A stretch of 64,000 nucleotides of DNA from an uncultured Omnitrophica bacterium (lineage in GTDB: Bacteria > Omnitrophota > Gorgyraeia > JACQQV01). The stretch is taken from the NCBI GenBank assembly GCA_947085655.1, contig CAMTXH010000022.1:2556-66555 (forward strand). The letters run 5' to 3'. The notes beneath the pieces were generated by a model that did no database searches, was not told the DNA's origin, and saw nothing but the letters and a program-made list of their open reading frames with translations. Made by a program: the position numbers and the translations under genes. Shown here piece by piece: positions 413 to 21,770 of the stretch. Position 1 is the stretch's first letter. Every line of letters starts with the position of its first letter.

Positions 413-1612
413 CTACATCTCCGCCGTCAGCACATGGCCCAATTTTTCTTTTTTGGCCTTGAGGTATTTCTTGTTGAGAGAAGTGGGGGTGATTTCAATC
501 GGAATCCGGTCCACCACCCGGAGTTTGTACCCTTCGAGTCCCACGATCTTTTTGGGATTATTGGTGAGAAGCCGGATTTCCCGCAGGCCCAAATCCGCCA
601 GAATCTGGGCGCCGATGCCGTAATGGCGGAGGTCCGGCTTAAAGCCGAGCGCCTGATTCGCGTCGACGGTGTCGAGCCCCTTTTCCTGAAGGACGTAGGC
701 GCGGAGTTTATTGATGAGACCGATGCCGCGGCCCTCCTGACGCATGTAAAGAATCACGCCGCGGCCTTCGCTTTGAATCATCCGCATCGACTGCTCCAGC
801 TGCTCGCCGCAGTCGCAACGGCTCGAATGGAAGACATCCCCTGTCAGACACTCCGAATGGACCCGGACGAGGACCGGTCCCTTGGCGATGTTTCCGAGGA
901 CAAGAGCCAGATGGTATTCGCTGTCCACGGTCGATTCGTAAGCATGGAGCCGGAAGTGGCCAAAACGGGTCGGGAGGTCCGCCGCGAGTGTTTTCCGGAC
1001 GAGTTTTTCAAAGCGTCTGCGGTATTCAATCAGATCTTGGATGGTTCCGATTTTGAGACGATGGGTCTTGGCAAATTTCAAGAGTTCCTGCGTCCGGGCA
1101 ATCCCTCCGTCCGGCAATGCCACGCGGCAAATCAAACCGGCCGGAAAAAGGCCCGCCATCCTCGCCAGATCCACGCACGCCTCTGTGTGGCCGGCCCGGA
1201 CCAGCACACCTCCCGGCTTTGCTCCGAGCGGCAGCACCGGTCCTGTCCGCTCGAGTCCCTCCGGAGAGGTCTTCGGATGAATCAATGCCCGAATCGTTCT
1301 GAGATGGTCCTGAAAAGGGACCTTTCGACGAAGCGCTTTTTTTGTCTTTACGGAAACGGTCCAGGCCGCCTCCAACACACTCCGGCTTTTTTCTCTGAGA
1401 GGGATGCCCAATTCCGAAAGACGGTGGGATTCCATCGGCATGCAGAGGGGTCCGCGCCCGTGCGATGTCATAAACTGAAGCGTCTTCCGGGTGACGGAGG
1501 AAGCGGTCGTCACAAAATCTCCCTCGTTCTCCGGCTCACCGTCATCCAAAAGGATGACGATCTGACCCCGCTTCAGCGATTTGAGAATTTCTGGGATAGA
1601 ATGAAAGGGCAT
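413..1612 (-). CDS. ribBA: Bifunctional 3,4-dihydroxy-2-butanone-4-phosphate synthase / GTP cyclohydrolase II
   Basis: 399-aa ORF. The N-terminal DHBP synthase region (RGQIVILLDDGEPENEGDFV) and the C-terminal GTP cyclohydrolase II region (VRVHSECLTGDVFHSSRCDCG) are both present. Confidence 0.9.
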   Translation of the reverse strand: MPFHSIPEILKSLKRGQIVILLDDGEPENEGDFVTTASSVTRKTLQFMTSHGRGPLCMPMESHRLSELGIPLREKSRSVLEAAWTVSVKTKKALRRKVPFQDHLRTIRALIHPKTSPEGLERTGPVLPLGAKPGGVLVRAGHTEACVDLARMAGLFPAGLICRVALPDGGIARTQELLKFAKTHRLKIGTIQDLIEYRRRFEKLVRKTLAADLPTRFGHFRLHAYESTVDSEYHLALVLGNIAKGPVLVRVHSECLTGDVFHSSRCDCGEQLEQSMRMIQSEGRGVILYMRQEGRGIGLINKLRAYVLQEKGLDTVDANQALGFKPDLRHYGIGAQILADLGLREIRLLTNNPKKIVGLEGYKLRVVDRIPIEITPTSLNKKYLKAKKEKLGHVLTAEM

Positions 1613-1895
1613 CGGTTTCCTTTATCCCGCCACCTACAAGGTGGCGGGATATTTTCGGCCTTATGGCCTCAAATAAAAACCCCGATTCTCTTTCGGGGAT
1701 TTGTGAATAGAGTCCACCCTCCTGGGCAGACCCCTTCTTTTCTCTCTTCTTGCACCCCGCACCCTTCGCTTGCCCTGAACCTGAACAAAGCAAATGGTTC
1801 AGGGCTACGCTCAGCTGCGGGGGTCGCGGGCTTGTCCGCCTTTGGCGGGCTTACCGCCGATGGGGAATTCCACCCACCCCCGAAGAGAAATTCTC
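1613..1895 (-). promoter_or_regulatory. FMN riboswitch (RFN element) in the ribBA 5' leader; aptamer ~1738-1895, expression-platform hairpin 1624-1650
   Basis: The minus-strand transcript reads CTCTTCGGGGGTGGGTGGAATTCCCCATCGGCGGTAAGCCCGCCAAAGGCGGACAAGCCCGCGACCCC...GGTTCAGGGCAAGCGAAGGGTGCGGGGTGCAAGAAGAGAG. This matches the conserved RFN core (CTTCGGGGcAGGGTGaAATTCCCgACCGGCGGTA ... AGCCCGCGA ... GGATGGGAGAAGG) with a closing P1 CTCTTC/GAAGAG. A perfect hairpin CCCGCCACC-ttgtag-GGTGGCGGG follows, just before the RBS and ATG. Confidence 0.65.
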
Positions 1896-2022: not shown

Positions 2023-2051
2023 TTGACTTTGCAGAGGGGGTATGGTATACT
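2023..2051 (+). promoter_or_regulatory. Sigma-70-type promoter (TTGACT - 17 nt - TATACT)
   Basis: Near-consensus -35 TTGACT (2023-2028), a 17-nt spacer, and -10 TATACT (2046-2051). It is positioned to drive the riboswitch-pilin transcript. Confidence 0.5.
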
Positions 2052-2068
2052 TTCACTGAAGGCGAAAA

Positions 2069-2160
2069 AGGCACACTCGGGGAAACCCGAGGTCGCAAAG
2101 CCACGGGTCTACAAATACGGTGCGATAACACCGTTTTCACGATCGCCAGGCTACCGACCT
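2069..2160 (+). promoter_or_regulatory. Candidate c-di-GMP-I (GEMM) riboswitch aptamer
   Basis: GGCACACUCGGGGAAACCCGAG-GUCGCAAAGCCACGGGUCU...ACGGUGCGAUAACACCGU...GCCAGGCUACCGA resembles the GEMM consensus (GGCAAAC, P2 hairpin with GAAA tetraloop, GGACGCAAAGCC junction, P3 hairpin, GCGGGGUUACCGA). There is a GNRA-capped P2, and P3 has a receptor-like internal loop. Confidence 0.6.
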
Positions 2161-2175
2161 CAATGGAATTTTCAA

Positions 2176-2212
2176 GCTGTCTCTCGTGTTGGTAGCGTGA
2201 GGCAGCTTTTTT
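2176..2212 (+). terminator. Intrinsic terminator / riboswitch expression platform upstream of the pilin-like gene
   Basis: Hairpin GCTGTCTC(2176-2183)...GAGGCAGC(2199-2206) with one G-U pair, followed by TTTTTT (2207-2212). It sits ~37 nt before the ATG at 2249. Confidence 0.6.
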
Positions 2213-2248
2213 ATTTGCACCCAAAGAAAAGAGATTTAAAAAGAAAAA

Positions 2249-3667
2249 ATGAGAACCCTTTTAAAGAAAAACGGCTGGGGTCTTATCGAGATGCTGACGG
2301 CGGTCGCCCTGATTGCCCTATTGGTTGTGTTGTCTCTTCCGGTTCTCTCCAGGGTGATGGCGAATATGAGAGATCAAAGCGCCATTGCCTCCCTCTGGGC
2401 CATCCTTGAGGCACAGAAAAGCTACCGGGATGCCCAGACCCCGACGACTTATGCGAATACCATAGGAGATCTTGTAAATGACGAGTATCTTTCGGGAAAA
2501 TTTCTCAACGATTCTTCCTATGAGTACCGGCTTTCTGCCACATCGAACACCTTCACAGCAGAGGTGGTTCGGGATGGAATCATCCTTGCCTCAATCAGCC
2601 ACATTGGAAACCTCACGTATGGAGGAGGGGGCGCAGAGGACGGAGGCAGTGGAGGTGGCGACGGCGGGGGAGGGAGGGGAGGGGGGGAGCAAATCTCTTG
2701 TCCCTATCTTTACATCTGGAACGGCTTTGCCTTTGTCAAAGAAAATGACCTGAATCCTGGAGGAGACATCGAGAGAGGGTTGGGAGAATATACCGATTTT
2801 TATCTCCTCATGAAAAAGGTTGTCCCTCAAAGGAACCAATATCTTTTCCAAATCAGGGAAGAAGTGGAGGAGATCAGCTGGATCAACGCGGTCAGACTTG
2901 TTTCCATCGACCACCCCCGCTCGGTCCAGGTGGCTCCAAGCCCTGAAGGTGTGATTTGGACTTATCGGGAAAAAGATCTTCAAAAGCCCCTCTCGGTCTA
3001 CACGGACAAGGGAGAAGATGCGGCGCCTCTTCTCAGCGATGTGGGAAAGCGTTTCTATCATGGCCGGGCCGGGAACTACCTGATAGTGAACTTTGGGGAA
3101 GTCAGGGATCTTGAAAACGGCGTCAGACTCATTATGAGCGCCGATCCCATGATGATACCGGAAAAGAGCATCCATCTCTTCGCCTGGGTGGAGGAAAGAC
3201 GGTGGATTCCTGTCGCCCAAATTCATCCTCATGAGAAATGGGACCGGTGGGCAGTAGACCTGACAGAGATTGCGAGGAAAAGAAAGGGGCAGGCGCTTCT
3301 CTTGAAATTCGCTCTGACAGACGAGCATCGAATCGACTTTGCCATGCTCGACACTTCCCCTCAAGCGGAGGTTTTCGTCCGGGAGGTCCCTCCGCTCACC
3401 ATGCACCATTCGCGGAGAGGAGATGTCTCGGAGGCGTTGAAAAAGACAGACCAGGAAGTCACGGAATTGGTGAAAGAGGACACCCTGACCTTGACATTCA
3501 AGCGGACCCCTCTCCAAGGAGAGGCGAGAGACTTCCTTTTTGTCTCCACAGCCAGTTACAAGCCCCTCCCTCCTTCCCTGGGAGGTCTCCCCCAGAGGGA
3601 AAAGGAATTTCTTCTCTTTGATGCCGTGCGACGGTTCTTTTCACAAAAGGGAGAACAGCCCCTTTAA
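2249..3667 (+). CDS. Type IV pilin-like / pseudopilin-like protein with a Gly-rich linker and a large (~300 aa) C-terminal domain of unknown function
   Basis: N-terminus MRTLLKKNG|WGLIEMLTAVALIALLVV looks like a class III (prepilin) signal: Gly then cleavage, Glu at +5, hydrophobic helix. A Gly/Asp low-complexity linker (GGGGAEDGGSGGGDGGGGRGGGE) is followed by a long C-terminal domain with no motif I recognise. Confidence 0.7.
   Translation: MRTLLKKNGWGLIEMLTAVALIALLVVLSLPVLSRVMANMRDQSAIASLWAILEAQKSYRDAQTPTTYANTIGDLVNDEYLSGKFLNDSSYEYRLSATSNTFTAEVVRDGIILASISHIGNLTYGGGGAEDGGSGGGDGGGGRGGGEQISCPYLYIWNGFAFVKENDLNPGGDIERGLGEYTDFYLLMKKVVPQRNQYLFQIREEVEEISWINAVRLVSIDHPRSVQVAPSPEGVIWTYREKDLQKPLSVYTDKGEDAAPLLSDVGKRFYHGRAGNYLIVNFGEVRDLENGVRLIMSADPMMIPEKSIHLFAWVEERRWIPVAQIHPHEKWDRWAVDLTEIARKRKGQALLLKFALTDEHRIDFAMLDTSPQAEVFVREVPPLTMHHSRRGDVSEALKKTDQEVTELVKEDTLTLTFKRTPLQGEARDFLFVSTASYKPLPPSLGGLPQREKEFLLFDAVRRFFSQKGEQPL
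2336..2461. repeat. 126-bp block identical at nucleotide level to 3770-3895 (copy 1, inside pilin-like gene 1)
   Basis: Direct comparison of the two stretches shows a perfect 126/126 match. Flanking sequence diverges on both sides. Confidence 0.9.
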
Positions 3668-3679
3668 GGCGCGTGAAAC

Positions 3680-4153
3680 ATGAAAGCGATCCTGAAACAA
3701 AATAAGGGAAAAAGTCTCGTCGAACTCTCAACGACGGTTGCCGTCATCGCCCTTTTGGTTGTTTTTTCCCTTCCGGTTCTCTCCAGGGTGATGGCGAATA
3801 TGAGAGATCAAAGCGCCATTGCCTCCCTCTGGGCCATCCTTGAGGCACAGAAAAGCTACCGGGATGCCCAGACCCCGACGACTTATGCGAATACCCTGGA
3901 AGACCTGATCGCCCAGGGATATCTGGACCGTCTCCCGAGTGACTATCGATATGTTCTCACCGCAACGGCCGATGCCTTCACTATCGAACTCTTAAGGGCA
4001 GGAGATACCCTGGCCACCATTGACCATAACGGGAATTTCTTCACGGGTGATGGGGGTGATGGGGGTGATGGGGGCGGTGGGGGTGATGGGGGTGATGGGG
4101 GCGGTGGGGAGATAAGCCTTGGGCATGAGCCTCCTATACAACCAAATCCATGA
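3680..4153 (+). CDS. Type IV pilin-like protein, short paralog of the upstream gene, ending in a GDG-repeat tail
   Basis: N-terminus MKAILKQNKG|KSLVELSTTVAVIALLVV has the prepilin-like Gly and Glu+5. Residues LPVLSRVMANMRDQSAIASLWAILEAQKSYRDAQTPTTYANT are identical to the upstream paralog. The C-terminus is GDGGDGGDGGGGGDGGDGGGGE. Confidence 0.7.
   Translation: MKAILKQNKGKSLVELSTTVAVIALLVVFSLPVLSRVMANMRDQSAIASLWAILEAQKSYRDAQTPTTYANTLEDLIAQGYLDRLPSDYRYVLTATADAFTIELLRAGDTLATIDHNGNFFTGDGGDGGDGGGGGDGGDGGGGEISLGHEPPIQPNP
3770..3895. repeat. 126-bp block identical to 2336-2461 (copy 2, inside pilin-like gene 2)
   Basis: Same as above. Confidence 0.9.
4046..4108. repeat. In-frame 9-bp tandem repeat (GGTGATGGG / GGCGGTGGG), 7 units, encoding Gly-Asp-Gly repeats
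   Basis: ggtgatggg x3, ggcggtggg, ggtgatggg x2, ggcggtggg. This is a slippage-prone simple sequence inside the CDS. Confidence 0.85.
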
Positions 4154-4192: not shown

Positions 4193-4221
4193 TTGAAAGT
4201 CCTTCCAAATTGTGCTATCCT
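4193..4221 (+). promoter_or_regulatory. Putative sigma-70 promoter (TTGAAA - 17 nt - TATCCT) for the GGDEF gene
   Basis: Sequence match only. The ATG at 4237 would give a very short leader. Confidence 0.4.
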
Positions 4222-4236
4222 CATCCCTGATCTTTC

Positions 4237-5967
4237 ATGCTCACTCTTTTCAAGCGTCCCAGCGTAAGATCCGTTTCCCTGATTGCCCTGGGAATCCTTC
4301 TGGTTTACGTCTTCTCCATCCGTCCGCTCACTCCTTTTGAAGCCCTCCAGTTCAGGATGCACGATTTCTTCTTTGTGAGCGCCCTAAAGGCGAAGCGTCC
4401 CCCTCCGGAACTGGATCAGATTGTTCTCGTGGCCCTGGATGACGAATCCTACACCAAGGTGAACGAACGCTGGCCCTGGGATCGCGCCGTCTACGCAGAA
4501 CTGGTCGAAAAACTTTCCCGTCAGAATCCGCGGTTGATCCTTTTGGATGTCGCTTTTGGGGGAGAACAGAACCCGGAAAGTGACACCCGCCTTGCCGCCG
4601 CCCTGGAAAAGGCGGGAAACGTCTTCATCGCTTATTATCTGGGGGATAATGGCAGACCGGTCTATCCTTTGGGGCGTTTTCGAAAAGCAAGTCTCGGCTC
4701 CGGATATGTCAACAAGCCTCTCGATGCCGATTTCAGTATCCGCCAGGCGCAACTCCTCCGCTGGACGGTTGACGGGGAGCTTCTCGACATGGCGCTGGAA
4801 CTAAAGGCCGCCTCCCACCTTTTTAGCGCCACGCCGGTCCCTTCCCGGGAGAAACAGATCATCCAGTTTCAAAAGAAGGAGGGGTCTCCTCCTCCACCTC
4901 TTCGCGGAACGGCTGTTCCGATTCCGGTCAGGAGGGATGGGACGGTCTTTCTGAATTACCAGGCCTCCCGTGAGGACTTTACGACCGTTCCGGCCTGGAA
5001 GGTCCTTGCGGAGGAAGTCCCCGAAGGGACTTTCAAAGACAAAATCGCCCTTTTTGGAATCACCAACCGGCTGATGCATGATATTCACCATTCCCCCCTC
5101 GGTTCCCTTCCGGGGGTCGTGATCTTTGCCAATCTCCTCCTCATGATTTTAAGCGGCGCTTATGTTTTTGAAGCGCCGCTTTGGGTCGACCTTTTCGTCC
5201 TCTCTTTTTTAGGGATGGCGACCGCCTACGCTACCTATCGGCTCACCCCCTGGCGGGGGTTCCTCTTTTTCTTCTACGCCGTCCTCTTCCTCCTCGGTGT
5301 CACCTTTTTCCTTTACCTCAAAAACATCCACTGGGATTTCGCCGGCACCCTCTTTGCAATGGTCTTCTGTTATCTGGGGATCACGTTTTACAAGTACTTT
5401 TGCGTTGTCCTTGAAAATGCGGCGCTCAAGGAGGAGGCCATCACGGACGGCCTCACGCAACTTTACACCTACCGCTATTTTGAATTGCGGCTCCGGAATG
5501 AATTCGAGCGGGCCAGCCGGTACCATGTCCCTCTTTCCCTTGTGTTTGTGGATGTGGACCACTTCAAAAGAATTAATGACACCTACGGACATGAGGAGGG
5601 AAACATCGTCCTCAGGGCAATCGCGGAGCTCCTCAGGAAACATTCCCGGCGGGTGGATCTGGTTGCCCGCTATGGGGGGGAGGAATTTTGCGTGATCCTA
5701 CCGCAGACAGAGCTGGAAGGGGCCGAGCACTATGCAGAGTTTCTCCGGAAAGCGGTTGAGGAAAGCCCCATTTCTCTCCGGGGGGGAGAAACGATCCGTG
5801 TCACCATCAGCTTGGGTGTTTCTTCCTATCCCCGTTTTCCCGTCACCTCAAGCGAGGAATTGGTCAAATTGACCGATCTGGGAGTCTACCAAGCCAAACA
5901 AACAGGCCGGAACCAGGTCTGCGTGGCGGGAAGCTCCTTCCTGAAAACCAAGGCGGAAAAACCTTAG
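4237..5967 (+). CDS. CHASE2 sensor domain-containing diguanylate cyclase (GGDEF)
   Basis: N-terminal signal/TM, then a CHASE2-like periplasmic region (VLVALDDESYTKVNERWPWDRAVYAELVEKL...LLDVAF). Several TM helices follow, then a C-terminal GGDEF domain with an intact RYGGEEF motif. Confidence 0.85.
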   Translation: MLTLFKRPSVRSVSLIALGILLVYVFSIRPLTPFEALQFRMHDFFFVSALKAKRPPPELDQIVLVALDDESYTKVNERWPWDRAVYAELVEKLSRQNPRLILLDVAFGGEQNPESDTRLAAALEKAGNVFIAYYLGDNGRPVYPLGRFRKASLGSGYVNKPLDADFSIRQAQLLRWTVDGELLDMALELKAASHLFSATPVPSREKQIIQFQKKEGSPPPPLRGTAVPIPVRRDGTVFLNYQASREDFTTVPAWKVLAEEVPEGTFKDKIALFGITNRLMHDIHHSPLGSLPGVVIFANLLLMILSGAYVFEAPLWVDLFVLSFLGMATAYATYRLTPWRGFLFFFYAVLFLLGVTFFLYLKNIHWDFAGTLFAMVFCYLGITFYKYFCVVLENAALKEEAITDGLTQLYTYRYFELRLRNEFERASRYHVPLSLVFVDVDHFKRINDTYGHEEGNIVLRAIAELLRKHSRRVDLVARYGGEEFCVILPQTELEGAEHYAEFLRKAVEESPISLRGGETIRVTISLGVSSYPRFPVTSSEELVKLTDLGVYQAKQTGRNQVCVAGSSFLKTKAEKP

Positions 5968-17204: not shown

Positions 17205-19094
17205 CTACGTCCCTTTTTCCGCCTTCTCCCCTTCGGGATAATACTTCCGGTAGCGGTAGTAATACGAAGAGCTCGGTTCCACTTCTATCGCCCGAATGTC
17301 GTTAAAGACCACCCCCAGAAGTTTTGCCTGGGCCGTGTCCAGCTGGGTCTTGGCCCGCTTGAGGGCATTCCGGGCCGTCCGTCCGGATTGGTATACGAGG
17401 ACAATTCCGTCCAGCTTTGGGGCAAGGATCAGGGTGTCGGTGACCGGAAGAACCGGGGGGCAATCGAAAATCAAAAAGTCAAATTGCGTTCTCAACGTCC
17501 GGATCAGTTCCTCCATCTCATGAGAAGCAAGAAGTTCGGGCGGGTTCGGAGGAAGATGTCCGGAGGTCATGAAATTGAGATAGCCGAGATGGGGGCTTTT
17601 CAAAGCCTCCTGCCATTTGACGTCGGCGACCAGAAGGTCTGATACGTTTTTGAGCGCCTGCTCATAAGAGACCGTTTTGGTCAGCACTTCAAAGAGTCCC
17701 GGTGTCCGTTCAAGGCCGAAGATTTCGTGAATCATGGGACGACGGAAGTCCACGTCGATCAGGAGGGTCTTTTTCCCCATTTGGGCGGAGGCGACCGCCA
17801 GATTCGCGCAGGTCAATGTCTTTCCCTCCCGGGGACCCGTGCTGGAGAGGGCAATGGCGAGCTGCTGCTTCTGGGGAAGGACCGAATAGATGGAAGTCCG
17901 GAGGGTATGGTACGATTCCGCCTCCGGAGAGCGGGGATCAAACTGGGTAACGAGTCGATACCGGGTCTCAGTCAATTTTTTTTCCTCACCCCCGATTCTC
18001 GGAAAAAGGGAAAACCGTTTTTTCTCCGCGGTATCGACCATATGGGGGATCATTCCCAACACCCCCACCCCCAGAAATGATTCGATATCTTCCACCACAC
18101 CGATGGAGGTATCCAGCGCCTCCTTAAAAAACGCGGCGATAAATCCGAGGAGAAGTCCCGAGCAGATTGCCAATACCATGCTCACCTTCTGATCTGTCTG
18201 TAGAGAAATGGAAGGAGGGGAGGCGTGTTCAAGGATGCGGACATTTCCTACATTTCCCGACTCCTCAATCCGCGACTCATTATACTTCTGCTTGAGCTGT
18301 GACACCAGATCTTGATTATCCCGGCGTTCCTTGGTAAGCCGAGAGGAAGTCAGCTCTTCCTCCGGGAGTTGTTTGAGTTTTTCCCCTGCAGAGGCAATTT
18401 GCTGGTTCAACCGCTCCACCTCCGGATGCTTTTCCGTGGCCCGGGCCAAGAGGTCTTCCCGTTTAAGCTCAAGGGCCATGACCGAACTCCTGATGTCTGC
18501 CACCTGATCCGCAAGGGGAGATCCTTCTTTAAACTGCCTCAACGCCTCTTCCGACTTGAACAAACGTTCTTCGGCTTTTTTCAATTCCTCCTCGATAAAG
18601 ACACGGACCGCTCTTTTTTCGCGGCCGGTCTCTTCAAGGTTGTACGCCACGTAGGCCTTGGCAACCGCATCCGCAATCGGTTTAGTCTCCTCGGCATTCG
18701 GACCGGTAACCGTGATTCGAATCACATTGGTATCCCCAATCTGAAGTGCGCTGACTTTTCTCTGAATTCCATGAACAATGTCTTCCCGTTCGAGGAGATC
18801 CGTGACCCCTCCCAGCCGGCCCAGCGCCTCAGCCGCCTTTTCCGCCACCGGGAAACTTTTGATGATTTCCAGCTGCGACTGGATCAGGTTCCCCAAAGCA
18901 TACGCATACCCCTCCCCGATGACCGGGACTCGCTGGATGAATTTGACTTTGAGATTGGATTGGTAGACCGGCTTCTGAGAAGAAATGAAATAATAGGAAA
19001 TCCCGATCACCATGCAGAAGATGATGAAGATGGTCACCTTCCGCTTCCGGAAAATCCGGTAATAATCCCGCAGATTCAGTTCATATTCTGCCAT
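17205..19094 (-). CDS. Polysaccharide chain-length determinant / bacterial tyrosine autokinase (Wzc/ExoP-like BY-kinase)
   Basis: N-terminal Wzz-like domain with TM helices and coiled coil. C-terminal P-loop domain (GPREGKTLTCANLAVASAQMGKKTLLIDVDFRRP) and a Tyr-rich tail SSSYYYRYRKYY. Confidence 0.85.
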   Translation of the reverse strand: MAEYELNLRDYYRIFRKRKVTIFIIFCMVIGISYYFISSQKPVYQSNLKVKFIQRVPVIGEGYAYALGNLIQSQLEIIKSFPVAEKAAEALGRLGGVTDLLEREDIVHGIQRKVSALQIGDTNVIRITVTGPNAEETKPIADAVAKAYVAYNLEETGREKRAVRVFIEEELKKAEERLFKSEEALRQFKEGSPLADQVADIRSSVMALELKREDLLARATEKHPEVERLNQQIASAGEKLKQLPEEELTSSRLTKERRDNQDLVSQLKQKYNESRIEESGNVGNVRILEHASPPSISLQTDQKVSMVLAICSGLLLGFIAAFFKEALDTSIGVVEDIESFLGVGVLGMIPHMVDTAEKKRFSLFPRIGGEEKKLTETRYRLVTQFDPRSPEAESYHTLRTSIYSVLPQKQQLAIALSSTGPREGKTLTCANLAVASAQMGKKTLLIDVDFRRPMIHEIFGLERTPGLFEVLTKTVSYEQALKNVSDLLVADVKWQEALKSPHLGYLNFMTSGHLPPNPPELLASHEMEELIRTLRTQFDFLIFDCPPVLPVTDTLILAPKLDGIVLVYQSGRTARNALKRAKTQLDTAQAKLLGVVFNDIRAIEVEPSSSYYYRYRKYYPEGEKAEKGT

Positions 19095-19096
19095 TT

Positions 19097-20146
19097 TTAC
19101 TCCTGAGTGATTTCGGAAACGTCAACGGGTCTTTTGATGTGTACGAGCGGTTCCTGCGCCAGGTCAATCCGCTTGATCTCCGAGAGGCGGTTTCCGCTTC
19201 CGTCCAGATAGATGTCGAGGACTGGAAGAAGCGGAAAGTTTTTGTTGACCTTCACCACCCGGCCGATTTCCTTGGTGTTCAACTGCACATAACTTCCGAT
19301 CGGGTAAATGGAGAGCTCCCGAACCAAAGCCTTCAGAATCTGGATGAGACTCGCCTTGAATTGGCTCCCCATGGAATAGGCAATTAACTTCATCGCCTCA
19401 TCCGGCGCGTGCCGTTTCCGGTAAGGGGGGGAGTGGGTTAAGGCTTCATAAACATCCGCGATGGCGATGATCCCCCCGAATTCGGTCACCTGGTCCTCCC
19501 GGAGCCCCCTGGGATAGCTGGTACCGTCCAGCCGCTCATGCTGGTGGGAAATCGCATCCAGAATCACCCGGTCCAAATCTTTCATATTCTCGAGAACCTG
19601 AACGGTATAGATGGGGTGTTTTTTGACAATCTCCATCTCTTCATCGGAGAGAGAAGCCGCCTTTTCCGTGAGCGCTTTCGGAACCTTCGCCATTCCAAGG
19701 TCATGCACCAACGCGGCTAGACCCAGTTGTCGGAGTTCCCCGTCGTTCAAACGGAGGCCCATCCCGACCTTGATGGAAAAAATCGATACATTGACACTGT
19801 GGGGATAAAGATAGTCTTCTTCCGACCAAGAAAATGTCAAGGTCAGAAGGGATTCTCCCCCCATTTTCAAAACGGAGATGATCCGATCGATCACTTCCTG
19901 ACCTCCGGCAAGGTCCGGGATAGGTCCTTTCTCCGCTTCTTCGAATTTTTTCCGGATCCAGTTCAGCGCCTCCTGATAGAGGGCCACCTCGCCTGTCTGC
20001 ATTGGAGAGGGCAGGATCTTCTGAGAAATGGCAGGACTCGGAGGAAGCGAAAAAGGGGGAGCGATCTCGGGGGTCGCTTGCTCCTCTTTCGGCGGTGGGG
20101 CCTTTGGATTGCCGTCGGGTCCCAAGACATCCGAAAGCCGGACCAT
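19097..20146 (-). CDS. HD-GYP domain protein (putative c-di-GMP phosphodiesterase)
   Basis: ALVHDLGMAKVP (HD) ... HHERLDGTSYPRGL (GYP). Its start overlaps the upstream ATPase stop (TGATG). Confidence 0.85.
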   Translation of the reverse strand: MVRLSDVLGPDGNPKAPPPKEEQATPEIAPPFSLPPSPAISQKILPSPMQTGEVALYQEALNWIRKKFEEAEKGPIPDLAGGQEVIDRIISVLKMGGESLLTLTFSWSEEDYLYPHSVNVSIFSIKVGMGLRLNDGELRQLGLAALVHDLGMAKVPKALTEKAASLSDEEMEIVKKHPIYTVQVLENMKDLDRVILDAISHQHERLDGTSYPRGLREDQVTEFGGIIAIADVYEALTHSPPYRKRHAPDEAMKLIAYSMGSQFKASLIQILKALVRELSIYPIGSYVQLNTKEIGRVVKVNKNFPLLPVLDIYLDGSGNRLSEIKRIDLAQEPLVHIKRPVDVSEITQE

Positions 20147-20955
20147 CAGCCCTCTCCCTCGATGCTGGCCATCGCCTCTTCAACGATCTTGTTCGTCACC
20201 TCGTTGGCATGGTGGACATACCCTGTAAAAAGACTCATGTCACAAATTTGATTGATCCGGCGGGGAATCCCGCCCGTCGCCTGTGTGATCACCCGCAATG
20301 CCTCTTTGGTAAAGAGGGGTTCCTTCCGTCCCGCCACTTGAAGGCGACGGCTGATATAACCCTCGGTCTCCTCGGTGGTCAGAGGTCCCAGATGAAAGCG
20401 CATGGCGATCCGCTGGGCAAAGGCCTTGTTCATCGCCACCTGCTCCCGGAGTTCCGGCTGCCCAATCAAAAAAAGGGTGACCATGAATTTATCCTCCAAC
20501 TGGAAATTGAGGAGAAGACGGATCTCCTCGAAAATATCCGGGTTTTGAATCACATGGGCTTCGTCGATAATCACGACCGTTTCCCGGCCGTCCCGGAGAT
20601 TGTTCGCCAGGATCTCCTGCATCTGAAAAAGGACATCGCTTTTATGAAGCGGCGGATTCGTAACGCCGAGCCCGTACAGAATCATCCGGAGCATTTCAAG
20701 GGGATCGAGGCGCGGGTTGGTGATATAGGCGATCCGGTGTCCCGACTGTTGCAGTCCCCGGATGACCGCTCGGGTGAGAAGGGTCTTGCCGCACCCGAAA
20801 ACGCCCGTCATCATTCCGGCCCCTTTTCGGGTCTTCACCACATAATAGAGCCGCGTCAACCCTTCTTCATGCTGTTTGGAGAGATACAAAAAACGGGGAT
20901 CCGGCGTATTTTCAAACGGCGGCTCTGTCAGTCCCCAATGCGCTTCATACATGGC
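20146..20955 (-). CDS. GspA/ExeA-like AAA ATPase (PEP-CTERM/EPS-associated ATPase-like)
   Basis: Walker A GVFGCGKTLL and Walker B VVIIDEAHV. The ORF track extends it to 21030, but the likely start is MYEAHWGLTEPPF, which sits right after the FabL-like stop. Confidence 0.7.
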   Translation of the reverse strand, partial: AMYEAHWGLTEPPFENTPDPRFLYLSKQHEEGLTRLYYVVKTRKGAGMMTGVFGCGKTLLTRAVIRGLQQSGHRIAYITNPRLDPLEMLRMILYGLGVTNPPLHKSDVLFQMQEILANNLRDGRETVVIIDEAHVIQNPDIFEEIRLLLNFQLEDKFMVTLFLIGQPELREQVAMNKAFAQRIAMRFHLGPLTTEETEGYISRRLQVAGRKEPLFTKEALRVITQATGGIPRRINQICDMSLFTGYVHHANEVTNKIVEEAMASIEGEG

Positions 20956-20957
20956 CG

Positions 20958-21770
20958 TTACCCAATGATATCCTCTCCCCCGTCCACACCGATGACATTG
21001 CCGGTGACCCAATACGTTTCTTCCAGGCAAAGCACACTCACCGCTTGCGCTACATCCTTCGGTCTTGTGATCCGACCCATCGGATTGCGCGCCTTGGCGA
21101 TTTCAAGCATCTTGTCGCTTCCCGGAATCTTCCTGAGGGCCGGTGTATCAGTCACCCCTGCCCGGACACAGTTGGCGGTAATCCCAAGGGGTGCGAGTTC
21201 CAGTGCCAACTGCCGGATGTGCGATTCGAGCGCCGCCTTGGCTGCGGAGACCGCCCCGTAGGTCGGCCAGACCCGTGTCCCGCCGGAAGAAGTCATTGCA
21301 AAAATCCGGCTCCCCTTTCCGAGGAGTTTCCGCTCAACCATCTCCTGAACCCAATAGACAAGACTGTGCGCCATCACATCCACGGTCATCTCCATCTGCG
21401 GCTGGGTGAGGGCGCCGTTTTCCCCTTCGGCAAAATAGGGCTTTAATGTCCCGAAGGCGAGTGAGTGAAAAAAAACCCGGACATAAGGGGTGCGGGCTCC
21501 TTTCAACCTCTCCTGAACCGCATCAAGAACCTCTTTTCGCTTCTCAGGGTCTGCAGCGTTCACGTTGAAGAAAAGGGCCTTCCGCCCCTTGGTTTGGATC
21601 TCCTTGACAATCCGCTCCGCGTTCTCGAGAGTCTGCTTCCGGTCAAAATGGACACCGAAAATATCCATGCCCCTGCCTGAAAGCTCCAGGGCAAGGGCCT
21701 CTCCGAAGCCGCTGGAGGCCCCCAGAATCAGGGCCCATTCGTCTTGGTATTGGGGGGGCTTTAATGTCAT
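20958..21770 (-). CDS. Enoyl-[acyl-carrier-protein] reductase, FabL-like SDR
   Basis: SDR Rossmann LILGASSGFGEALA and catalytic YGAVSAAKAALESHIRQLALELAP (Y-x6-K, like FabL/FabI). It sits at the end of the fab cluster. Confidence 0.7.
   Translation of the reverse strand: MTLKPPQYQDEWALILGASSGFGEALALELSGRGMDIFGVHFDRKQTLENAERIVKEIQTKGRKALFFNVNAADPEKRKEVLDAVQERLKGARTPYVRVFFHSLAFGTLKPYFAEGENGALTQPQMEMTVDVMAHSLVYWVQEMVERKLLGKGSRIFAMTSSGGTRVWPTYGAVSAAKAALESHIRQLALELAPLGITANCVRAGVTDTPALRKIPGSDKMLEIAKARNPMGRITRPKDVAQAVSVLCLEETYWVTGNVIGVDGGEDIIG

Follow-up and report, generated by a model that had tools for sequence, protein, structure and literature searches.

In a 64,000-nucleotide (nt) stretch of DNA from an uncultured Omnitrophica bacterium (contig CAMTXH010000022.1, positions 2,556 to 66,555; in the following "the window"), the leader of an operon coding for type IV pilin-like proteins contains a predicted class I cyclic di-GMP (c-di-GMP) riboswitch, which probably acts as a transcription-termination OFF switch. 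A ligand-controlled termination switch had been proposed for this site in the initial annotation of the stretch, and this reading is supported by matches to Rfam families, by covariation in the helices P2 and P3 of the aptamer and by a locus layout that is conserved among related loci. The positions of all features are given in Table 1.

The aptamer was identified with the covariance-model search that the initial annotation had suggested, for which the whole window was scanned against Rfam with the curated thresholds. The stretch from 2061 to 2159 on the forward strand is a full-length match to clan CL00126, for which the family RF03167 (c-di-GMP-I-GGC, gathering score 59) was reported with 61.8 bits and an E-value of 3.6e-12. 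A second family of the same clan also scores above its own threshold and is masked by clan competition. If only the stretch from 2079 to 2240 is searched, so that the aptamer loses its 5′ quarter, RF01051 (c-di-GMP-I, gathering score 35) is the best family with 40.7 bits over 2079–2158, and three of the related loci described below match this family with 54.5 to 77.6 bits. No further GEMM-like element was found in the 64-kb window, even at E-values up to 1.

In the Vc2 aptamer of Vibrio cholerae, c-di-GMP is contacted by G20, A47 and C92, and C44-G83 is a universally conserved interhelix pair (PMC4744006, PMC6140456, PMC5888326). In Vc2, Vc1 and Bc1, a distance of 27 nt separates G20 from A47, the two bases on either side of P2, and this G-to-A spacing was used for mapping the ligand site onto the window (PMC4744006, PMC11218506). 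Here, the bases flanking P2 are G2070 and A2097, again 27 nt apart, while C2094 precedes A2097 by 3 nt, C2154 is found after P3 and G2145 precedes C2154 by 9 nt, with offsets as in Vc2. The models RF03167 and RF01051 differ in a single binding-site column (CGC-G-AAgCc and CGC-A-AAgCc, respectively), in which the window has an A, namely A2097. Because G2070, A2097 and C2154 represent G, A and C at positions 20, 47 and 92, the element is assigned as a canonical G/A/C c-di-GMP-I aptamer, which would be expected to bind c-di-GMP.

The secondary structure outlined in the initial annotation was recovered in this match. The GNRA-capped hairpin (CUCGGG-GAAA-CCCGAG, 2076–2091) is part of P2, the junction GUCGCAAAGCC is located at 2092–2102 and the second hairpin corresponds to P3. 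The receptor region in P3, into which the GAAA tetraloop might dock, reads UCUACA/CACGA, compared to a consensus of CUAAg/uAuGa and to UCUAAA/GAUGA in the related loci. In the unconstrained minimum free energy (MFE) fold of the leader, a GAGGUCG/CGACCUC helix (2089–2095 with 2155–2161) displaces P1 and the base of P2; this helix was rejected because only 4 bp of it remain in the related locus L001. Plain MFE folding alone does not give the GEMM fold. Because the Rfam-constrained fold lies just 1.5 kcal/mol above the MFE, this result does not amount to a stable fold of the leader without the GEMM P2/P3 architecture, which the initial annotation had named as an argument against its own proposal.

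Table 1. Features of the putative c-di-GMP riboswitch and of the downstream operon (positions refer to the window)
Feature	Position	Strand	Description
Sigma-70-type promoter	2023–2051	+	−35 TTGACT at 2023–2028; 17-nt spacer; TG-extended −10 TATACT at 2046–2051
c-di-GMP-I (GEMM-I) aptamer	2061–2159	+	Rfam matches, covariation
Aptamer P1	2061–2064 with 2155–2159	+	P1 helix
Aptamer P2	2071–2096	+	P2 helix; GAAA tetraloop at 2082–2085
Aptamer P3	2099–2152	+	P3 helix
Distal P3	2110–2140	+	Extra hairpin, 2117–2122 with 2129–2134, absent in relatives; altered receptor region
Ligand-site bases	G2070, A2097, C2154	+	Equivalents of Vc2 G20, A47, C92
Interhelix pair	C2094-G2145	+	Equivalent of C44-G83
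Putative antiterminator 5′ strand	2147–2158	+	P3 3′ base, C92 and P1 3′ strand of the aptamer
Putative antiterminator 3′ strand	2188–2199	+	Terminator loop and top 4 nt of the terminator 3′ strand
Intrinsic terminator	2174–2216	+	Stem 2174–2186 with 2196–2208, one U-U mismatch; U6 at 2207–2212, then A, UUU
First regulated gene	2249–3667	+	472-aa modular type IV pilin-like protein, ATG at 2249
Second pilin-like gene	3680–4153	+	157 aa, starts 13 nt after the first gene; same N-terminal pilin domain, Gly-rich tail
CHASE2-GGDEF diguanylate cyclase gene	4237–5967	+	84 nt after the second pilin-like gene

The 472-amino acid (aa) product of the first regulated gene is rare. A search in 5.8 billion proteins revealed only the protein itself, an orthologue with 56% identity (P0002) and the protein P0003, which has just the pilin domain in common with it; the search with the 157-aa paralogue added two proteins, P0005 and P0006. 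The contigs carrying P0002, P0003, P0005 and P0006 provided four related metagenome loci (L001, L036, L037 and L038), three of which (L001, L036 and L038) have the layout of the window, with the promoter followed by the aptamer, the terminator and a pilin-like gene. RF01051 matches with 77.6 bits in L038, which has a divergent FMN (flavin mononucleotide) riboswitch upstream and a CHASE2 gene downstream, and with 73.9 bits in L036, where a divergent FMN riboswitch and ribBA are located upstream. In L001, the aptamer is cut by the contig end and still reaches 54.5 bits; it is followed by the terminator and then by genes for a pilin, a CHASE2-GGDEF protein and a small pilin. There is no match in L037, from which the whole aptamer is deleted. 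This locus is a natural riboswitch-loss variant, in which (897–1040) the promoter CTTGATTTT...TGGTATACT and a terminator remnant (GCTCGCTGTGGGTAGCGGCGAGGC, then T7) are kept together with the pilin and CHASE2 genes.

The near-consensus promoter (TTGACT-17-TATACT) reported by the initial annotation is present upstream of the aptamer and agrees with the consensus at 10 of 12 positions, in addition to its TG-extended −10 region. Its hexamers are kept in five related loci, among them all full-length ones (L036, L037 and L038), and the spacer varies. Transcription likely starts at a purine at about 2058–2059, 2–3 nt ahead of the structured element.

For the analysis of covariation, the aptamers of the window, L001, L036 and L038 were aligned. 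In total, 94.8% of the aptamer pair cells hold standard pairs, with 100% paired in P2 and 97.5% in P3; slid controls were paired to at most 48%. Both partners are changed in six aptamer pairs, of which five belong to P2 and one to P3, and only 3 of 500 shuffles reached this number. The conserved 18-mer GATCGCCAGGCTACCGAC had 33 matches in a scan of genome contigs, all of them chance matches in the coding DNA of unrelated high-GC genomes, and a metagenome scan with a gapped aptamer pattern resulted in a single chance match (L035), which is not a riboswitch.

The strong intrinsic terminator described in the initial annotation was found downstream of the aptamer with a hairpin energy of −19.1 kcal/mol. 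In each of the four aptamer-bearing loci there is a hairpin with an energy between −18 and −21 kcal/mol and a U6-7 tract behind it, and in the relatives the pairing of the stem is kept through compensatory and one-sided changes. The linker between aptamer and terminator is 7–23 nt long and unalignable. The terminator loop UGUUGGUAG (2187–2195), by comparison, is identical at all nine positions in the window, L001 and L038, with one pairing-preserving difference in L036. This loop is able to pair with the 3′ strand of the aptamer over 9–10 bp in each of the four loci, and all four substitutions in this core preserve pairing. In the window, the putative antiterminator consists of 2150–2158 with 2188–2196 (9 bp) and 2147–2148 with 2198–2199, and the 18 nt at 2141–2158 are identical in L001. 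The three relatives have a 10-bp core, a 2-nt bulge and five further pairs reaching into the terminator 3′ strand, and this extension contains one compensatory change from U-A to C-G. By chance, a random 10-mer gives nine contiguous pairs with a 23-nt stretch at p ~0.0013. In all four loci, the nine pairs of the antiterminator core are all formed in the MFE folds of nascent transcripts ending 15 nt past the start of the loop. Terminator and antiterminator pairs were counted from anchored coordinates, as MAFFT placed the terminator of the window one base off.

The antiterminator helix takes up the base of P3, the C92 equivalent and the 3′ strand of P1, and is therefore incompatible with the ligand-bound fold. 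Terminator and antiterminator likewise exclude each other, since the top of the terminator 3′ strand is common to both, and judging from the geometry they could coexist only in a pseudoknot whose crossing loop has zero length. The terminator 5′ strand is situated inside the loop closed by the antiterminator. The initial annotation had suggested checking whether P1 and the terminator stem are mutually exclusive. Direct competition between the two was rejected, as the end of P1 (2159) and the start of the terminator (2174) are 15 nt apart; the competition would run via the antiterminator instead.

We infer an OFF switch because the conserved antiterminator excludes the ligand-bound fold. Transcription from the strong sigma-70-type promoter would start at about 2058, followed by folding of the aptamer. 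Without ligand, the aptamer 3′ strand (2147–2158) would pair with 2188–2199 as soon as the latter is made, and by enclosing the terminator 5′ strand the antiterminator would prevent the terminator from closing. Read-through would then reach the pilin genes and probably also the CHASE2-GGDEF cyclase gene. With c-di-GMP bound, the 3′ strand would be locked in the aptamer, the terminator (2174–2208 and U6) could form and transcription would stop near 2212. Such an OFF design would be kinetic, with the free RNA making the antiterminator first and the ligand-locked RNA leaving the terminator free. Taking the presumed direction of the switch together with the presumed co-transcription of the cyclase, a negative feedback on c-di-GMP synthesis would result. 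In Clostridioides difficile, those class I c-di-GMP riboswitches that are functional were shown experimentally to be termination OFF switches, and the direction of a riboswitch is not to be assumed across species (PMC6366702).

Several observations weigh against a working OFF switch in the window, for which both ligand binding and the termination response are predictions from sequence features. In the full-length RNA, the terminator conformer is favoured over the antiterminator conformer by up to 6.8 kcal/mol (window −55.5 and −48.7 kcal/mol, L038 −52.5 and −48.8 kcal/mol, L036 −43.7 and −40.1 kcal/mol), and in L001 the two are within 0.4 kcal/mol (−42.1 and −42.5 kcal/mol). An OFF switch of this kind would therefore have to be under kinetic control. 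Conservation is poor in P1 (66.7% of its cells are paired), every change in the antiterminator core affects just one side of a pair and converts between G-U and Watson-Crick pairing, and the four sequences come from one narrow lineage, so that conservation could partly reflect relatedness. Furthermore, the promoter-like site ahead of the cyclase gene (see below) could make the cyclase partly independent of the leader. Finally, among the four copies, that of the window is the most eroded and the weakest. Its P3 contains a C2104-A2148 mismatch and, in the distal part, a 22-nt insert with low posterior probability in the Rfam alignment, and its tetraloop-receptor motif deviates from that of the relatives, as given above. 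Three of the five pairs of the antiterminator extension are lost, and the antiterminator duplex amounts to −18.9 kcal/mol compared to −22 to −24 kcal/mol in the relatives.

The erosion leads to the rival explanation that deserves most weight, although we regard it as unlikely: a copy with a loose aptamer or a weak antiterminator would no longer respond to the ligand, and the leader would largely be a constitutive attenuator that is mostly locked OFF at any level of c-di-GMP. Besides the mismatch, the altered receptor motif and the extra hairpin in P3, this is favoured by the score of the truncated window sequence (40.7 bits on RF01051, compared to 54.5 bits for the equally truncated L001 and 73.9–77.6 bits for the full-length relatives), by the lost antiterminator extension together with the 6.8 kcal/mol in favour of the terminator conformer, and by L037, which demonstrates that the lineage can delete the aptamer yet keep the promoter and a terminator remnant. 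Non-responsive c-di-GMP-I riboswitches are also documented, namely Bc1 (PMC11218506) and 5 of 16 in C. difficile (PMC6366702). However, the ligand-contacting bases and the C44-G83 pair are all intact, the full-length match is still above the curated thresholds, the antiterminator core retains its 9 bp and is seen in the MFE fold of the nascent transcript, and the 18-nt aptamer 3′ strand is the same as in L001. An ON switch, in which c-di-GMP blocks the terminator and activates the pilin operon as in C. difficile pilA1 or Bacillus thuringiensis Bc2, with positive feedback via the cyclase, appears very improbable. It would fit the frequent up-regulation of adhesive pili by c-di-GMP, the existence of class I ON switches (Bc2 and Vc1; PMC6366702) and the terminator as thermodynamic ground state without ligand, but no aptamer strand overlaps the terminator 5′ strand (2159 and 2174, respectively). 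Moreover, the only conserved alternative pairing takes bases of the ligand fold (2147–2158, including C2154); the ligand would therefore free the terminator and not block it. Least of all do we expect a variant of different specificity, i.e., a c-di-GMP-I-GGC riboswitch or a cyclic GMP-AMP (c-GAMP) sensor of the GEMM-Ib type, even though RF03167 is the best full-length Rfam family. The GGC identity was rejected because of A2097 at the sole differing binding-site column, where the RF03167 consensus has G, and the c-GAMP identity because G2070 is not the A at position 20 that defines this class (PMC6140456). The relatives and the truncated window sequence score best on RF01051, and a GGDEF cyclase gene is found in the operon. 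The termination OFF switch responding to c-di-GMP thus remains the preferred reading.

The pilin-like gene and the gene for a GGDEF cyclase, which the initial annotation had located downstream of the leader, are both present there (Table 1). The 472-aa protein has a class III signal-type N-terminus (KKNG/WGLIE), a hydrophobic helix, a pilin domain with EAQKSYRDAQTPTTYAN, a Gly-rich linker and a C-terminal module. In both pilin-like proteins, a class III signal peptide with E at +5 and a hydrophobic N-terminal helix can be recognized (KKNG/WGLIEMLTAVALIALLVV and NKG/KSLVELSTTVAVIALLVV). Matches to pilin N-terminal models of NCBIfam are weak (E ~1e-4), and the relatives match N_methyl. An AlphaFold2 model of the 472-aa protein, calculated from a two-sequence alignment, has a mean predicted local distance difference test (pLDDT) score of 40.2, which makes it unusable; its long N-terminal helix is of low confidence.

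No terminator was detected between the pilin genes and the cyclase gene, and a weak promoter-like site is located at 4193–4221 ahead of the cyclase gene. In the four loci with a visible downstream region (window, L001, L037 and L038), the pilin gene is always followed by a CHASE2 gene, which codes for a full CHASE2-GGDEF cyclase in the two loci in which it is complete. This conserved linkage of pilin and CHASE2 genes suggests a feedback circuit. Only tentatively do we consider the larger picture, in which an OFF-switch homeostatic loop over its own CHASE2-GGDEF cyclase is combined with undescribed modular type IV pilins bearing interchangeable C-terminal modules and with an unusual antiterminator platform in the terminator loop.

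The C-terminal module of the 472-aa protein comprises about 290 aa (2690–3664, residues 148–472), opens with a conserved SCPYLYxWNG motif and has no match in Pfam. At E <= 1e-3, a total of 1,287 representative homologues were obtained, mostly at the extreme C-termini of large surface or secreted proteins that contain HYR, PKD, Peptidase_C25, FG-GAP, laminin-G (LamG), TSP3 or beta-helix domains, and one homologue is situated in another N_methyl pilin. The module looks like an undescribed domain family. The paralogues and orthologues of the pilin have a Hint domain or nothing after the linker. In P0003 (L038, 412–1260) and P0005 (L036, 1843–2409), the pilin domain and the Gly-rich linker are fused to a Hint domain of the intein or hedgehog-type autoprocessing kind, with a conserved Ser-Cys at its beginning. 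It is unusual for a pilin to carry such an autoprocessing module at its C-terminus, and C-terminal cleavage or modification of the pilin could result from it. Over about 70 codons (VLSLPVLSRVMANMRDQSAIASLWAILEAQKSYRDAQTPTTYANT; 2249–2470 and 3680–3900), the two pilin-like genes of the window are nearly identical. The identity extends to the DNA, where the same terminator-like hairpins are found on the minus strand at 2445–2424 and 3879–3858, which suggests a recent duplication or gene conversion.

The initial annotation had already regarded the 128-aa open reading frame (ORF) at 2023–2409 as spurious, and we agree with this. It is a mechanical ORF only, which crosses the aptamer and the terminator and is out of frame with the pilin gene where both overlap; its TTG "start" consists of the first three bases of the −35 hexamer and is located upstream of the likely transcription start. 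The annotation was corrected and the regulatory RNA replaces this ORF. A second leader-spanning ORF call was noticed in L036 (1771–2409, P0005), where the public gene call begins within the riboswitch terminator, at a GTG (VAVGQFFYVSS...). P0005 actually starts with the ATG at 1843, downstream of an AGGAG Shine-Dalgarno sequence.

Upstream of the c-di-GMP riboswitch and divergent from it, the window contains an FMN riboswitch (1740–1891, minus strand) with its own promoter (1928–1900, minus strand) and ribBA (413–1612, minus strand), a fused gene for 3,4-dihydroxy-2-butanone 4-phosphate (DHBP) synthase and GTP cyclohydrolase II. The FMN riboswitch scores 47.7 bits (E ~1e-7 to 5e-10) and is missed by a threshold scan because this is below the gathering score of 66.2. 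The homologous element in L036 reaches 73.4 bits and a truncated one is present in L038. The back-to-back riboswitch leaders are conserved. The HD-GYP protein noted at 19.1 kb in the initial annotation corresponds to an HD_5 domain protein (19097–20146, minus strand). It is flanked by a Wzz/GNVR/P-loop protein resembling chain-length-determinant tyrosine kinases and by an AAA_22 ATPase (17205–21030, minus strand), and glycosyltransferase genes are found at 9.6–12 kb; this neighbourhood may be a c-di-GMP-linked exopolysaccharide locus. No pilus-assembly genes were found in the 64-kb window, the remainder of which is housekeeping.

The element is a genuine but ordinary addition to a well-known riboswitch class and is found by a standard Rfam scan, and the knowledge of the class itself is unchanged. 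With it, the pilin-like operon downstream, which belongs to an uncultured lineage, is placed in the c-di-GMP regulon. Slightly beyond routine are the conserved linkage to a cyclase, with the feedback circuit suggested by it, and the modular pilins with an uncharacterised C-terminal surface module.

Compared to known systems, the element resembles the c-di-GMP-I class (RF01051) with V. cholerae Vc2 in its three-helix junction, the GAAA tetraloop on P2, the CGCAAAGC junction, the equivalents of G20, A47 and C92, the C44-G83 pair, the match to the covariance model and the position in a 5′ leader before a pilus or surface gene. It differs from this class in the extra distal P3 hairpin, the diverged tetraloop-receptor motif, the C-A mismatch in P3, a U in place of A before C44 (GGUCGC compared to GGACGC) and a short, poorly conserved P1. 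With RF03167, the top full-length model, the GAAAAAGGCA 5′ junction and the modelled P1 are in common, whereas the window has A2097 where the RF03167 consensus has G; we take the GGC in the name of this variant to denote positions 20, 47 and 92. The c-GAMP riboswitches (GEMM-Ib, e.g., Geobacter Gs1761) have the same fold, are frequently located ahead of genes for pilins or cytochromes and work with terminators. They are mostly ON switches. In contrast to the A at position 20 of c-GAMP riboswitches, the window has G2070 (PMC6140456).

Closest in the proposed logic are Cd1 (Cdi-1-3) and the other class I riboswitches of C. difficile, with which the element has the aptamer class and the intrinsic terminator in common as well as, presumably, the OFF logic, which was demonstrated for Cd1 (PMC6366702). 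Cd1 targets flagellar genes and C. difficile pilA1 is under the control of a class II ON switch, whereas the putative switch of the window targets an operon with pilin-like and cyclase genes. In contrast to Cd1, its antiterminator 3′ strand is made up of the terminator loop and the top of the terminator 3′ strand.

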